From the UHGV virus genome UHGV-0220142: DNA of 10,913 nucleotides, one strand, 5' to 3'. Positions 1,796 through 10,302 of this stretch are shown piece by piece. Source of the DNA: a virus. Every line of letters starts with the position of its first letter. Positions within the stretch are counted from its first letter, which is position 1. The position numbers and the translations under genes are program-made. The notes under the pieces were generated by a model. That model saw only the letters and a list, made by a program, of their open reading frames with translations, searched no databases and was not told the origin of the DNA.

Positions 1796-1825
1796 GTTTA
1801 CAAGACTGTTCCTCTGTGGTACTAT
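1796..1825 (+). promoter_or_regulatory. promoter-like element: GTTTAC, 18-bp spacer, TGg-TACTAT
   Basis: GTTTAC at 1796-1801 and extended -10 TGGTACTAT at 1817-1825. Same architecture as the elements at 4767 and 7417. The -10 hexamer is imperfect. Confidence 0.35.
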
Positions 1826-1850
1826 ACAACTATCAACTACGGAGGAACAG
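1806..1850 (+). promoter_or_regulatory. RNA stem-loop sequestering the Shine-Dalgarno of the gene at 1854
   Basis: Perfect 9-bp inverted repeat CTGTTCCTC (1806-1814) / GAGGAACAG (1842-1850), extendable by 6 further pairs with two G-U wobbles (1815-1820 with 1836-1841). The 3' arm contains the SD GGAGG (1841-1845). Confidence 0.5.
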
Positions 1851-1853
1851 AAA

Positions 1854-2381
1854 ATGAATGCTAAAGATATTTTCAACTTGGTAAATTACAACGATGGTAA
1901 ATTTAAATCTGAAGCACAAAGCAAGTTCTTTAATGACATCTCAATTGGAGGTGAAATCACGGTTGATGGAGGACAAATTTATAAATCTCGTTGGAATTGG
2001 ATTGTTATCATCGATGAGATTGGTATTGTAGAAATTTACAAAAATACGAATAAAAATCGTACATTACGCTGGTCTCGTGATACTAACGAACAGTACAAAA
2101 AGGATAAAGCATCTAAGTTATCTCGTGTAACTCAAGAAGATATTAAGTTCATCAAGAAAGATATTTTGATGTATGATAACTTAATTGCTGAAGAGCAAGC
2201 TGTTATTGATAAATTTGATGAGATTAAAGCTTCTCGTGAAATTCCTGATTTTATGAAAGAATCAGTAAATGAACGATACACTCTCATTTCAGAGCGTATT
2301 GAAACTTACAAAAAGCAAAGAGCTGAACGCCAGAATACTCTTCGGAAATTTGAAGAACGGTTAAAGACGGTACTCGCATAA
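1854..2381 (+). CDS. hypothetical protein, 175 aa
   Basis: Long ORF with ATG 1854 preceded by GGAGGA (1841-1846). Codon usage is consistent with neighbouring genes. No recognisable motif. Confidence 0.7.
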   Translation: MNAKDIFNLVNYNDGKFKSEAQSKFFNDISIGGEITVDGGQIYKSRWNWIVIIDEIGIVEIYKNTNKNRTLRWSRDTNEQYKKDKASKLSRVTQEDIKFIKKDILMYDNLIAEEQAVIDKFDEIKASREIPDFMKESVNERYTLISERIETYKKQRAERQNTLRKFEERLKTVLA

Positions 2382-3747: not shown

Positions 3748-4767
3748 ATGAAAACTCGTTCTCAAATTGAAGATATGGTTCGTAATGCCAGCTATACTCG
3801 TAATGTTATGACATTTTTGTGCCAAAATAATTTAGACCCTGATAGAGTTAATAGTTCCATTCACTTTAAGTATATGAATAGCAGTGAATGGTTACGTCAT
3901 TTTAGTAAAGCGGGGTATATTACACAAATGACTGCTCGTGAGCAGCTCACCGATTTCTGTAAAACTATTGATTATAAAAATCCTCTATTTGTTCAAGGTG
4001 TTGGTCAGAGTAAGGTCGATTTATCATCTGGATTTTTCAATCCAAATCATTATCGTATTGAATGGAGATTTATTGCTCTATTCCGTAAACAATTAAAGCA
4101 AATTTTGTCAACAGCTAGTCGATTAAAAGGTTCTGACATTAATTTAAAGAACCTGAAATTTGATGGTTATACTCTTCAGATGGAAGTAAGACCATTAAAA
4201 GAAAATAACAGAACTGCACGAATTAGCTTTAAACCTAATACAAAAAATTCTCTTTCAATTTGCGAATGCCTTAAATCGCAGTTGACAGAAGCATTTAAGT
4301 ATATGGATGTTGTTGCCGCTGTTCAGTCTAAGATTTTACCTCGTTTTGAGCGATTTAAATTAGACACAACAACATATGAACTTGATATGATCGTTTCATT
4401 TAAATACGATTTTTTGAGAAAGGACGAAGCCCCGCAAGAGAAAAAGCAAGAAGTGCAAGATAACTTAAATTTATCTAATTACTTATCAAACGATCCTAAA
4501 TTTTGGATGTATAGTTCAGGCAATAATGATGCATGGAAATTTAATAAAGTGAATTTTCTTCCTATTGAAAATCCGAGTCTTAAACCTGTTGAAAAATGGC
4601 ACGCGGATGCGATTGAGAAGTCTCTTAAGGCAGTAGATGATGAACTTGTTAAAGCAACAAATGAAGTGCTAGAAGCTGAAAAGATGCTAGAAAAAGCTCA
4701 AGAAAAAGTCAAAAATCTCACGAAGCAACGTTCTAAACTGAACAATGCACTAAATGCACTAAACTAG
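3748..4767 (+). CDS. hypothetical protein with C-terminal coiled-coil-like tail, 339 aa
   Basis: ATG 3748 preceded by AAGGA. C-terminal ~50 aa are strongly heptad-like (LKAVDDELVKATNEVLEAEKMLEKAQEKVKNLTKQRSKLNNALNALN). Shares a K(Y/I)MDVV motif with the next gene. Confidence 0.75.
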   Translation: MKTRSQIEDMVRNASYTRNVMTFLCQNNLDPDRVNSSIHFKYMNSSEWLRHFSKAGYITQMTAREQLTDFCKTIDYKNPLFVQGVGQSKVDLSSGFFNPNHYRIEWRFIALFRKQLKQILSTASRLKGSDINLKNLKFDGYTLQMEVRPLKENNRTARISFKPNTKNSLSICECLKSQLTEAFKYMDVVAAVQSKILPRFERFKLDTTTYELDMIVSFKYDFLRKDEAPQEKKQEVQDNLNLSNYLSNDPKFWMYSSGNNDAWKFNKVNFLPIENPSLKPVEKWHADAIEKSLKAVDDELVKATNEVLEAEKMLEKAQEKVKNLTKQRSKLNNALNALN

Positions 4768-4796
4768 TTTACTTCGCCACAAGGATGTGGTATAAT
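4767..4796 (+). promoter_or_regulatory. early-promoter-like element: GTTTAC, 18-bp spacer, TGg-TATAAT
   Basis: GTTTAC 4767-4772 (overlapping the upstream stop codon), TGG 4788-4790, TATAAT 4791-4796. Lies 30-60 nt upstream of the SD and ATG of the 4825 gene. Confidence 0.45.
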
Positions 4797-7416: not shown

Positions 7417-7446
7417 GTTTACACTGATGAAGAAACATTATATAAT
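7417..7446 (+). promoter_or_regulatory. early-promoter-like element: GTTTAC, 18-bp spacer, TATAAT
   Basis: GTTTAC 7417-7422 and TATAAT 7441-7446, in the gap upstream of the pin-like gene. Confidence 0.4.
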
Positions 7447-7972: not shown

Positions 7973-7976
7973 AAAT

Positions 7977-7984
7977 AATAAATA
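7977..7984 (+). promoter_or_regulatory. late-promoter-like octamer AATAAATA, one mismatch from TATAAATA
   Basis: Sits just upstream of, and overlapping, the 5' arm of the gene 49 hairpin, so a transcript starting a few nt downstream would lack the 5' arm. Confidence 0.25.
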
Positions 7985-8015
7985 CCCTTATCTATTTAAG
8001 GTAAGGGTTTTATTA
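7984..8015 (+). terminator. stem-loop followed by T-rich run; candidate intrinsic terminator and/or SD-sequestering hairpin before gene 49
   Basis: ACCCTTA (7984-7990) pairs with TAAGGGT (8002-8008), extendable to ~10 bp with a 5-nt loop ATTTA, followed by TTTTATT. The 3' arm contains the gene 49 SD AAGGG (8003-8007), 7 nt before ATG 8015. Confidence 0.45.
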
Positions 8016-8488
8016 TGTTATTGACTGGCAAATTATATAAAGAAGAAAAACAGAAATTTTATGATGCACAAAACGGTAAATGCTTAATTTGCCAACGAGA
8101 ACTAAATCCTGACGTTCAAGCTAATCACCTCGACCATGACCATGAATTAAATGGACCAAAAGCAGGAAAAGTACGTGGATTGCTTTGTAATCTCTGCAAT
8201 GCCACAGAAGGTCAAATGAAGCACAAATTTAATCGTTCTGGCTTAAAGGGACAAGGTGTTGATTATCTTGAATGGTTAGAAAATTTACTTACTTATTTAA
8301 AATCCGATTACACCCAAAATAATATTCACCCTAACTTCGTTGGAGATAAATCAAAGGAATTTTCTCGTTTAGGAAAAGAGGAAATGATGGCCGAGATGCT
8401 TCAAAGAGGATTTGAATATAATGAATCTGACACCAAAACACAATTAATAGCTTCATTTAAGAAGCAGCTTAGAAAGAGTTTAAAATGA
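8015..8488 (+). CDS. 49: recombination endonuclease VII (Holliday-junction resolvase), 157 aa
   Basis: 157-aa product with zinc-binding Cys pairs CLIC and CNLC and the HLDHDH catalytic His/Asp cluster. N-terminal sequence MLLTGKLYKEEKQKFYDAQNGK matches my recollection of T4 gp49. Stop overlaps the nrdD start (ATGA 8485-8488). Confidence 0.92.
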   Translation: MLLTGKLYKEEKQKFYDAQNGKCLICQRELNPDVQANHLDHDHELNGPKAGKVRGLLCNLCNATEGQMKHKFNRSGLKGQGVDYLEWLENLLTYLKSDYTQNNIHPNFVGDKSKEFSRLGKEEMMAEMLQRGFEYNESDTKTQLIASFKKQLRKSLK

Positions 8489-10302
8489 CAATTGAAAAAG
8501 AAATTGAAGGATTGATTCATAAAACTAATAAAGACCTTTTAAACGAGAATGCTAATAAAGATTCTCGTGTTTTTCCAACTCAACGGGACCTTATGGCTGG
8601 TATTGTGTCTAAACACATTGCCAAAAATATGGTCCCGTCTTTTATTATGAAAGCGCATGAAAGCGGAATTATTCATTTTCATGATATTGATTATTCCCCT
8701 GCTCTTCCATTTACTAATTGCTGTTTAGTAGATTTAAAAGGAATGCTTGAGAACGGATTTAAGCTTGGTAATGCACAGATTGAAACTCCTAAATCAATTG
8801 GCGTTGCTACTGCAATTATGGCACAAATTACTGCACAGGTTGCTTCTCACCAATACGGCGGAACGACTTTTGCGAATGTAGATAAAGTACTTTCTCCTTA
8901 TGTTAAACGCACCTATGCAAAACATATTGAGGATGCAGAAAAATGGCAAATCGCTGATGCGTTGAATTATGCTCAATCTAAAACAGAAAAAGATGTATAC
9001 GATGCATTCCAAGCTTATGAATATGAAGTAAATACTCTCTTTAGTTCAAACGGACAGACTCCTTTTGTAACAATTACATTTGGTACGGGAACTGACTGGA
9101 CTGAACGAATGATTCAGAAAGCAATTCTGAAAAATCGTATTAAAGGTCTTGGTCGTGATGGGATAACTCCTATTTTCCCTAAGCTTGTTATGTTCGTTGA
9201 AGAAGGTGTTAATCTTTATAAAGACGATCCGAACTATGATATTAAGCAGCTTGCTTTAGAGTGCGCAAGCAAAAGAATGTATCCTGACATCATTTCGGCT
9301 AAGAACAATAAAGCTATCACCGGCTCATCTATTCCTGTTTCTCCAATGGGTTGCCGTAGTTTCTTGAGCGTATGGAAAGATTCGACTGGTAATGAAATTC
9401 TTGATGGACGTAATAATCTCGGTGTTGTAACACTGAATCTTCCTCGCATTGCGTTAGATTCTTATATTGGAACACAGTTCAATGAACAGAAATTTGCCGA
9501 ATTGTTCGATGAACGAATGGATTTGTGTTTTGAAGCTTTGATGTGTAGAATTAGTTCCTTAAAAGGAGTTAAAGCGACTGTTGCTCCTATTCTTTACCAA
9601 GAAGGTGCATTCGGGGTCCGTCTTAAACCTGATGACGACATAATTGAGTTATTTAAAAACGGTAGAAGTTCAGTGTCTTTAGGATACATTGGTATTCACG
9701 AATTGAATATTCTTGTCGGTCGTGATATTGGACGAGAAATTTTAACTAAGATGAATGCTCATCTTAAACAGTGGACTGAAAGAACCGGATTTGCTTTTAG
9801 TTTATATTCGACTCCTGCTGAAAACCTTTGCTATCGCTTCTGTAAACTCGATACAGAAAAATATGGAAGCGTAAAAGATGTTACTGATAAAGGCTGGTAC
9901 ACTAACAGTTTCCACGTTTCAGTAGAAGAAAATATTACTCCGTTTGAAAAGATTTCTCGTGAAGCGCCATATCATTTCATTGCGACAGGTGGTCACATTT
10001 CTTATGTTGAACTTCCTGATATGAAAAATAACTTAAAGGGTCTTGAGGCCGTATGGGATTATGCTGCACAACATTTAGATTATTTTGGTGTTAATATGCC
10101 AGTAGATAAATGTTTTACATGTGGAAGTACCCATGAAATGACTCCTACTGAAAACGGATTTGTTTGTTCTATTTGTGGAGAAACTGATCCTAAAAAGATG
10201 AACACCATAAGAAGAACATGCGGATATCTTGGAACTCCTAGCGTTGTTCCATGGAATTTAGGTAAAATGAAAGAAATGGTAAAACGAGTAAAACATGCAT
10301 AG
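8485..10302 (+). CDS. nrdD: anaerobic ribonucleoside-triphosphate reductase (class III RNR), 605 aa, uninterrupted
   Basis: C-terminal glycyl-radical motif RRTCGYLG, preceding C4 zinc ribbon (CFTCGS...CSICGE) and overall length typical of NrdD. Single continuous ORF. Confidence 0.95.
   Translation: MTIEKEIEGLIHKTNKDLLNENANKDSRVFPTQRDLMAGIVSKHIAKNMVPSFIMKAHESGIIHFHDIDYSPALPFTNCCLVDLKGMLENGFKLGNAQIETPKSIGVATAIMAQITAQVASHQYGGTTFANVDKVLSPYVKRTYAKHIEDAEKWQIADALNYAQSKTEKDVYDAFQAYEYEVNTLFSSNGQTPFVTITFGTGTDWTERMIQKAILKNRIKGLGRDGITPIFPKLVMFVEEGVNLYKDDPNYDIKQLALECASKRMYPDIISAKNNKAITGSSIPVSPMGCRSFLSVWKDSTGNEILDGRNNLGVVTLNLPRIALDSYIGTQFNEQKFAELFDERMDLCFEALMCRISSLKGVKATVAPILYQEGAFGVRLKPDDDIIELFKNGRSSVSLGYIGIHELNILVGRDIGREILTKMNAHLKQWTERTGFAFSLYSTPAENLCYRFCKLDTEKYGSVKDVTDKGWYTNSFHVSVEENITPFEKISREAPYHFIATGGHISYVELPDMKNNLKGLEAVWDYAAQHLDYFGVNMPVDKCFTCGSTHEMTPTENGFVCSICGETDPKKMNTIRRTCGYLGTPSVVPWNLGKMKEMVKRVKHA

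Follow-up and report, generated by a model that had tools for sequence, protein, structure and literature searches.

The window analyzed here is the whole 10,913-nt stretch of DNA from the virus genome UHGV-0220142, and the element under study is a hairpin with a promoter nested within it that occupies the 60-nt gap between two small genes, nrdC.9 and nrdC.8. Over 500 Tequatrovirus genomes, RB14, RB32, and MLF4 among them, share 97-98% identity with the ~1.1 kb surrounding the element, and the window is the nrdC.10-to-nrdD segment of a Tequatrovirus (T4-like) phage. All genes of the segment lie on the + strand, which synteny with annotated RB14 and T4 identifies as the early-transcribed one, in the order nrdC.10 (partial), a seg-like homing endonuclease gene (689-1408), nrdC.9, nrdC.8, nrdC.7 ... 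nrdC, pin, gene 49 (8015-8488), and nrdD. The upstream cistron nrdC.9 (1491-1793, + strand; assigned from RB14/T4 synteny and from matches to DUF7203 and phrog_1931) has its stop codon at 1791-1793, 12 nt 5' of the hairpin's 5' arm, and nrdC.9 transcripts would run into the hairpin. The gene proposed to be regulated, nrdC.8 (1854-2381, + strand), is an open reading frame (ORF) of 175 amino acids (aa) in the ORF list of the window that is annotated as nrdC.8 in RB14 and T4 and matches phrog_2274, a family of unknown function.

The hairpin consists of a 5' arm at 1806-1820 (CTGTTCCTCTGTGGT) and a 3' arm at 1836-1850 (ACTACGGAGGAACAG), each 15 nt long and 87% Watson-Crick complementary to the other, separated by a 15-nt loop (1821-1835), all on the + strand. 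Direct reading, a repeat finder, and the RNA fold agree on both arms, and the fold gives the loop. No mismatch or wobble interrupts the lower 9 bp (1806-1814 with 1842-1850), and the two pairs that depart from Watson-Crick pairing are G·U wobbles (T1815·G1841 and G1818·T1838), so that the inverted repeat described in the original prediction, with 9 perfect bp extended to 15 by wobbles, was found as described. The 5' arm runs from the promoter spacer across the TGn motif to the first base of the -10 element, the loop holds most of the -10 element together with the predicted transcription start at ~A1832, and the 3' arm holds the nrdC.8 Shine-Dalgarno sequence GGAGG (1841-1845, + strand), 8 nt before the ATG at 1854. 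The GGAG at 1841-1844 doubles as a target motif of the endoribonuclease RegB. The RNA folding proposed as a check of the original prediction returned a stable structure: the minimum free energy of the 1790-1870 RNA is -26 kcal/mol, compared with -11.7 +/- 2.6 in 200 dinucleotide shuffles, none of which was as stable (z = -5.43). The arm duplex has a predicted energy of -26.0 kcal/mol and p = 0.0005 (fewer than 1/2000 trials) when the 14-nt promoter spacer alone is shuffled, and the same spacer shuffle on the T4 sequence gives p = 0.002; a chance origin of the arm complementarity is ruled out by these tests. Rfam covariance models at the gathering score gave no matches over the whole window, and a known RNA family was therefore rejected.

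The promoter elements follow one another on the + strand from the end of nrdC.9. An upstream block at 1770-1795 (AATTGTGAAAGAAGTTTCTTTTAGTG) overlaps the end of that gene, and part of it (AAGTTTCTnTTAGT) is kept in all three genera in which the locus was found (Tequatrovirus, Mosigvirus, and Dhakavirus). The -35 element GTTTACA (1796-1802), which has the T4 early form, is invariant in these genera and matches at 7/7 positions in a T4-specific scan. Every orthologue of the three genera retains the TG of the extended -10 TGn motif (TGG, 1817-1819), and the -10 element TACTAT (1820-1825) is a hexamer found identically at 15 other T4 scan sites. The sigma-70 register is TTTACA-17-TACTAT with TG; the shorthand of the original prediction, GTTTAC-18-TGgTACTAT, placed every element correctly, but the 18 nt run to TACTAT and not to TGg. 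A generic sigma-70 scan of the window gave 48 sites against 47 expected, and the match at this locus (9/12 plus TG) is not special in A+T-rich DNA; since the generic scan does no better than chance, the match is meaningful only under a T4-specific score and in the light of conservation.

Such a score (GTTTACA-17(+/-1)-TGn-TAnnnT, maximum 15) was run on the assembled T4 genome (L022-L025) and on the window. In T4, sites scoring at least 13 number 36 on the early-transcribed strand versus 1 on the opposite strand. The nrdC.8 site, GTTTACA-17-TGG-TACTAT (1796-1825), has the -35, 17-bp spacer, TGn, and -10 TAnnnT of an early promoter and scores 13/15, and its T4 counterpart is among the 36, with a predicted start at ~53907. 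Starts were placed 7 nt after the -10 element, and because the scan site with a predicted start at 133295 reproduces exactly the coordinate of the T4 early promoter named Pe133295 in GenBank, both the scan and the 7-nt rule are validated. By this rule the nrdC.8 start falls at A1832, in the loop and downstream of the 5' arm, as had been anticipated, and 22 nt before the ATG; the site is intergenic and oriented along the early-transcribed + strand. The strand-specific score and the cross-genus conservation support the sequence at 1796-1825 as a T4-type early promoter. The consensus of the MotA box is TGCTTtA, centered at ~-30. A MotA-dependent middle promoter was considered by eye against this consensus and rejected, the -35 element being of the early form and the site being missing from the published table of middle promoters, where the nearby entries are PnrdC.7 (53325) and PmobD (57389). 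T4 early promoters have been described as 'über' promoters combining UP, -35, TGn, and -10 elements (PMC2988021). No transcription start site or Cappable-seq data for T4 turned up when searched for, and promoters are not annotated in the AF158101 and NC_000866 records.

Sites scoring at least 13 in the window occur on the + strand only, at 1796-1825, 4767-4796, and 7417-7446. The second (GTTTACT-17-TGG-TATAAT, 14/15) lies immediately before nrdC.4, and the third (GTTTACA-17-TATAAT, 14/15) lies within the 49.1 coding region, upstream of pin. Spacer-to-leader complementarity is not significant at the T4 equivalents of the nrdC.4 and pin promoters (50937 and 47416).

The placement of the 5' arm within the promoter has a direct consequence for the RNA. 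Because the arm includes TGG and ends at T1820, the first base of the -10 element, transcripts from this promoter must lack it, whatever their exact start. Partition-function folding predicts that GGAGG is unpaired with a probability of 0.000 on a long RNA (starting at 1760 or at -80), bearing out the proposed occlusion, and of 0.41 on an RNA starting at 1832 (0.41-0.50 across Tequatrovirus); the masking helix has a predicted energy of -22 to -26 kcal/mol. The hairpin of gene 49 in the same window served as a positive control, and there the Shine-Dalgarno sequence is unpaired with a probability of 0.001 on long RNA and 0.85 on RNA from ~7990. The arms of that hairpin are at 7981-7993 and 7999-8011, with the Shine-Dalgarno sequence AAGGG at 8003-8007 and the ATG at 8015, and a late-promoter-like sequence (AATAAATA) lies at 7976-7983.

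The mechanism modeled from this geometry, which we regard as probable, is that nrdC.8 belongs to an early promoter cassette whose spacer is complementary to its own ribosome-binding site (RBS), such that read-through RNA is silent and own-promoter RNA is translated. RNA polymerase arriving from upstream (in T4, from the nrdC.10 early promoter at ~55348 or the middle promoter PmobD, through nrdC.9) would transcribe both arms, and the resulting RNA would fold into a hairpin of 13-15 bp that sequesters GGAGG and leaves nrdC.8 untranslated. RNA from the cassette's own promoter would begin at ~1832 in the loop, without the 5' arm, and its Shine-Dalgarno sequence would be free. Synthesis of NrdC.8 would then depend on its own promoter alone and be restricted to the initial minutes after infection, until early promoters shut off, and on long transcripts the helix should also keep RegB away from GGAG. 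Firing of the promoter at ~1832 in vivo, the existence and translational silence of read-through RNA, and the biological purpose of the arrangement are what we infer. From ribosome footprints, a ribosome terminating 12 nt before the stem should barely reach it; given the position of the nrdC.9 stop codon, translational coupling is thus unlikely to open the helix.

The distribution of the element among related phages was surveyed by a tblastn search against 50,697 phage records, in which nrdC.8 was found in three genera only, and by searches of IMG/VR (15 loci) and of metagenomes (11 loci), the latter adding little new variation. The 5' arms of Tequatrovirus and Dhakavirus lie at different offsets and share no common alignment columns; per-sequence folding and spacer shuffles were used. 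Mosigvirus loci (~84% protein identity) and Dhakavirus loci (~68%) retain AAGTTTCTnTTAGTnGTTTACA, TGnTAYTAT, and the leader CTATCAACTAC. Among the three genera the spacer from the -35 element to TGn is unalignable, while the -35, TG, and -10 elements are invariant or vary only at Y; conserved promoter elements around a drifting spacer are the footprint expected of a working promoter. Within Tequatrovirus, T4 has C at 1807 and C at 1850, giving a 13-bp stem to which the T and G of the window add one pair each, and further variants change loop bases (L008) or convert a G-C pair to G·U at 1848 (C to T, L033), so that the variants of this genus lengthen the stem, keep the pair as G·U, or fall in the loop. 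Masking is maintained in a second genus: the Dhakavirus spacer (TCTCCAGTAGAAA) carries a distinct 5' arm (TCTCCAGTAG), placed ~5 nt further upstream (nearer the -35 element), that is again complementary to the Shine-Dalgarno region and includes an A pairing with the extra T in CTACTGGAGG (spacer-shuffle p = 0.0015). The Dhakavirus Shine-Dalgarno sequence is predicted to be unpaired with a probability of 0.004 when the RNA is long and 0.19-0.50 when it is short.

The same arrangement recurs among the early genes of T4, where 41 early-promoter sites with a downstream start codon were analyzed. Thirteen of the 41 lie at the floor of the shuffle test (p = 0.003) for spacer-to-leader complementarity, with ~0.1 expected by chance, and at eight sites the predicted unpaired fraction of the Shine-Dalgarno sequence is below 1% on long RNA and exceeds 40% on short RNA. 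The eight masking cassettes are those of nrdC.8, ndd.4, alc, 30.8, denV, regB, modB, and motB.2 (predicted starts of the seven other than nrdC.8 at ~166771, 136300, 130274, 65378, 62761, 13150, and 8182); the masking at modB is not derived from the spacer. At least eight T4 sites share TGGTACTAT followed by acaactatc or taccctatc, and the ndd.4 cassette is a near-copy of the nrdC.8 cassette, including both arms. The annotated ndd.4 start (166764) is an ATG within ctATGgagg (166749-166764) that overlaps the Shine-Dalgarno sequence and lies 7 nt after the predicted transcription start; a second ATG in the same frame, 15 nt further downstream and 8 nt past GGAGG, looks the more plausible start of that gene.

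Comparison of the two strands bears on whether the inverted repeat acts as DNA (e.g., as a recombination hot spot, a cruciform, or a protein site) or is a by-product of cassette shuffling, as the near-identical cassette upstream of T4 ndd.4 and the proposal that elements of this type are recombination sites and form mini-circles would allow. The sense fold is the more stable in 14/16 T4 hairpin cassettes, with a mean sense-antisense difference of ~-5.5 kcal/mol over the 16 compared with a genome background of -1.97 +/- 3.9, and the sense folds contain 47 G·U pairs versus 18 in the antisense folds, which indicates selection on the sense transcript and not DNA symmetry. With the sense RNA markedly more stable than its complement, mismatches that are G·U and not A·C, arm sequences that differ between lineages and so offer no common protein site, and chance excluded by the shuffle tests, a DNA-level role or a shuffling by-product is a very improbable explanation of the hairpin. 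As to how far masking extends, early gene cassettes of the T4 type may as a rule be built with anti-Shine-Dalgarno spacers in their promoters, a proposal made tentatively and one we would not yet call likely. If it is true, each cassette would be translationally insulated from upstream transcription, its protein output would be tied to its own promoter and would end at early shut-off, and a class of strictly immediate-early proteins would be defined; the resulting context-independence would explain the free shuffling of mobile promoter-ORF cassettes by recombination.

Published T4 data touch on the model at several points. The GGAG of T4 nrdC.8 is 'moderately cleaved' by RegB in vivo, one of only two such sites (PMC1702504); RegB cuts intergenic GGAG motifs and is inhibited by secondary structure, and 16 RegB-resistant T4 sites are structured. 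Moderate cleavage would fit a mixture of masked and unmasked RNA. In time-resolved omics of T4 infection nrdC.8 is classed as 'early RNA, early protein', and gene e, with its known masked RBS, as 'early RNA, late protein'. Label-free quantification detects NrdC.8 at 1 min in 2/3 replicates (18.6 and 33.2 million) and at 21-51 million up to 30 min, flat from 3 min, while NrdC.9 is undetected at 1 min and reaches ~92 million at 3 min, and NrdC.6 and NrdC.5, encoded downstream of the mapped middle promoter PnrdC.7 (53325), climb until 12-20 min (PMC9697503 Table S3). The proteomics are consistent with nrdC.8 having its own immediate-early promoter and not being translated at later times. The paper on DRT1 merely notes nrdC.8 as a down-regulated transcript.

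Several of these observations also weigh against translational masking as the function of the hairpin. NrdC.9 and NrdC.10 share the early plateau of NrdC.8, which promoter shut-off alone could explain, and the proteomics therefore do not separate an effect of the hairpin from that of shut-off. The short RNA leaves the Shine-Dalgarno sequence only ~40-50% unpaired in the model. The sequence after GGAG in nrdC.8 (GAACAGAAAAU) is off the RegB consensus (GGAGAAUAAAA) and could by itself explain moderate cleavage, a point that also counts against a role for the hairpin mainly in protecting RNA, by hiding GGAG from RegB or by blocking 3' exonucleases so that long mRNAs of nrdC.7 and beyond are preserved. 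The intercistronic position of the hairpin, the inhibition of RegB by structure, and the only moderate cutting of the nrdC.8 site would suit such protection, which is compatible with translational masking and not exclusive of it, but hairpins that exclude GGAG would be unaccounted for, and protection as the main function is considered quite unlikely.

Hairpins of the latter kind form the remaining evidence against masking. In Mosigvirus, AGGTCTATGG pairs with CTATAGACCT around the -10 element and the Shine-Dalgarno sequence is ~46% accessible on long RNA, and in a fourth lineage (L015, L016, and L018) a 13-bp hairpin of AGTATGGGGA with TCCCCATACT encloses the -10 element (p <= 0.0035); in both, the probability of an unpaired Shine-Dalgarno sequence is 0.3-0.5 on long RNA. 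Six T4 cassettes with significant complementarity (30.7, ipI, ipII, mobD.2, dmd, and motB) likewise have a hairpin around the -10 element alone. All four lineages share a hairpin that has its 5' arm inside the promoter and is hence present on read-through RNA only, with masking in two of the four. Because non-masking hairpins occur both in orthologues and in the six T4 cassettes, hairpins straddling the -10 element must have another role too, and masking might arise incidentally from the position of the 3' arm. The divergent fourth lineage has a protein that starts MEAKSIF and a different promoter cassette, GTGTACA...TATAAT (at about positions 1440-1500 of L015, L016, and L018), and its Shine-Dalgarno sequence GGAGAAUAAAAUG (GGAGAAUAAAA) equals the 11-nt RegB consensus exactly, which suggests that RegB rather than masking may limit expression there.

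One such role has been proposed. The elements known as PeSLs (promoter-early stem-loops) comprise an early promoter, an A+T-rich upstream region, a stem-loop that mostly lies between the -35 and -10 elements or overlaps the -10, and a 3' Shine-Dalgarno sequence and ATG, are repeated in hyperplastic regions, and have been proposed to terminate or attenuate transcription and to serve as sites of recombination (Arbiol et al. 2010; Comeau et al. 2014). The nrdC.8 hairpin could thus mainly be a terminator or attenuator that thins upstream transcription, with the pairing of the Shine-Dalgarno sequence incidental. Arbiol et al. (2010) proposed this role for stem-loops between -35 and -10 or overlapping -10, and one RB49 stem-loop cut lacZ expression as much as the rrnB T1 terminator did; the hairpins lying off the Shine-Dalgarno sequence in orthologues and in the six T4 cassettes would be expected under such a role. 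However, the tested RB49 stem is a G/C-tract stem, unlike the nrdC.8 hairpin, and T4 downstream genes are known to be reached by extended early transcripts. An intrinsic terminator was rejected at nrdC.8, where the loop is 15 nt (criterion 3-8), the 3' arm is followed by AAAATGAAT, with AAAAUGAAU instead of a U-tract after the stem, and the terminator scan gave no match at the site; among the 16 T4 cassettes, none has a U-tract after the hairpin, and A-rich sequence stands there instead. Attenuation as the main function is accordingly rated as unlikely, and translational masking from an early promoter, the interpretation that had been put forward for this locus, stands as the best-supported explanation once corrected for early timing and for PeSL membership.

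Both corrections follow from comparison with known systems. In T4, sequestration of a Shine-Dalgarno sequence that is relieved by an internal late promoter is documented for e, soc, 49, and I-TevI, and similar masking hairpins are described for I-TevII, I-TevIII, segB, and Aeh1 mobE (PMC3014915, PMC2988022). At gene e the masking effect is 100-fold, and the known masked genes, according to one review, 'are all late genes'. The nrdC.8 element resembles e, soc, 49, and I-TevI in both features of predicted geometry, a Shine-Dalgarno sequence held in a helix whose 5' strand precedes or overlaps the promoter, and own-promoter RNAs that lack that strand. It lacks their late promoter and late product: in those genes the promoters are late (TATAAATA, gp55-dependent) and translation is delayed, whereas the nrdC.8 promoter is of the early sigma-70 type. 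By analogy, the element would work like this family, and it is not a member of the family as currently described. The T4 precedent invoked in the original prediction, with gene 49 among its examples, thus holds for the device itself, as the reviews confirm, and not for its timing, the documented cases having late promoters and the temporal logic being reversed here.

Structurally, the sequence features identify the nrdC.8 element as a PeSL cassette, which the original prediction had missed. Its expectation of silent read-through RNA and translatable internal transcripts agrees with the predicted accessibilities of 0.000 and ~0.4. The element shares with PeSLs a strong early promoter, an A+T-rich upstream region, an overlapping stem-loop, a 3' Shine-Dalgarno sequence and ATG, an intergenic position among small genes of unknown function within a hyperplastic region, and repeats elsewhere in the genome; it fits the subclasses 'between -35 and -10' and 'overlapping -10' of Arbiol et al. 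and the T4/PST PeSL promoter consensus TTTACW-N17-TAYWAT. It differs from the PeSL descriptions in that its 3' arm covers the Shine-Dalgarno sequence and no U-tract follows, and the PST/T4 stem-loop in Comeau et al. (2014) is drawn just upstream of the promoter and is not the nrdC.8 helix. Translation and the ribosome receive no mention in Arbiol et al. (2010) or Comeau et al. (2014). The closest parallel within T4 is the regB cassette, in which the spacer also pairs with the Shine-Dalgarno sequence (probability unpaired 0.000 on long and 0.47 on short RNA; shuffle p = 0.003) and the protein plateaus early, as NrdC.8 does; regB is autoregulated through cutting of its own Shine-Dalgarno sequence by RegB, and its GGAG is efficiently cleaved whereas that of nrdC.8 is moderately cleaved. 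No masking hairpin is described for regB in the literature covered, and no description of a masking hairpin at an early promoter was found there, although Miller 2003 and Liebig and Ruger 1989 lie outside that literature and might hold one. The nrdC.8 element joins two known T4 devices, the PeSL cassette and the RBS-masking hairpin, and is a variant rather than something categorically new.

T4 is the reference for phage temporal gene control, and RBS-masking hairpins are taught as a means of delaying late proteins. The early version, if it works as proposed, would have the reverse effect of confining a protein to the opening minutes of infection despite later read-through, and would give PeSL stem-loops a concrete post-transcriptional role. 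For nrdC.8 itself the immediate biological payoff is modest, and the possible generality among T4 early genes is the most valuable lead; were the design general, as the regB, denV, alc, and other cassettes suggest, strictly immediate-early proteins of T4-like phages could be predicted from their genomes by a simple sequence rule, and synthetic biology would gain a natural model for insulated expression parts.

The remaining observations concern the genes around the element. NrdC.8 and NrdC.7 have no Pfam matches and NrdC.9 matches DUF7203 alone, and the name 'thioredoxin' that nrdC.9, nrdC.8, and nrdC.7 (1491-2844) bear in many GenBank records, apparently after the nrdC name, looks like a propagated mis-annotation that the domain matches do not support. 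The seg-like homing endonuclease gene at 689-1408 (239 aa, phrog_314), located between nrdC.10 and nrdC.9, is also present in RB14, RB32, and RB51; T4 is without it and has a gap of 94 nt between nrdC.10 and nrdC.9, and the gene appears to be a mobile insertion within the transcription unit feeding the hairpin. A small hairpin of 8 bp (one G·U) at 1419-1449 (GGCAGTTC...GGACTGCC) follows the stop codon of the endonuclease gene and precedes the nrdC.9 Shine-Dalgarno sequence, with no U-tract after it. At the far end of the window, nrdD (8485-10302) is one unbroken ORF of 605 aa, whereas T4 nrdD is split by a group I intron carrying I-TevII, and that intron appears to be missing from the nrdD of this phage. 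The longest inverted repeat of the window also lies within the nrdD coding sequence, at 8583-8638, with 26-nt arms that are 77% complementary and 4 nt apart.

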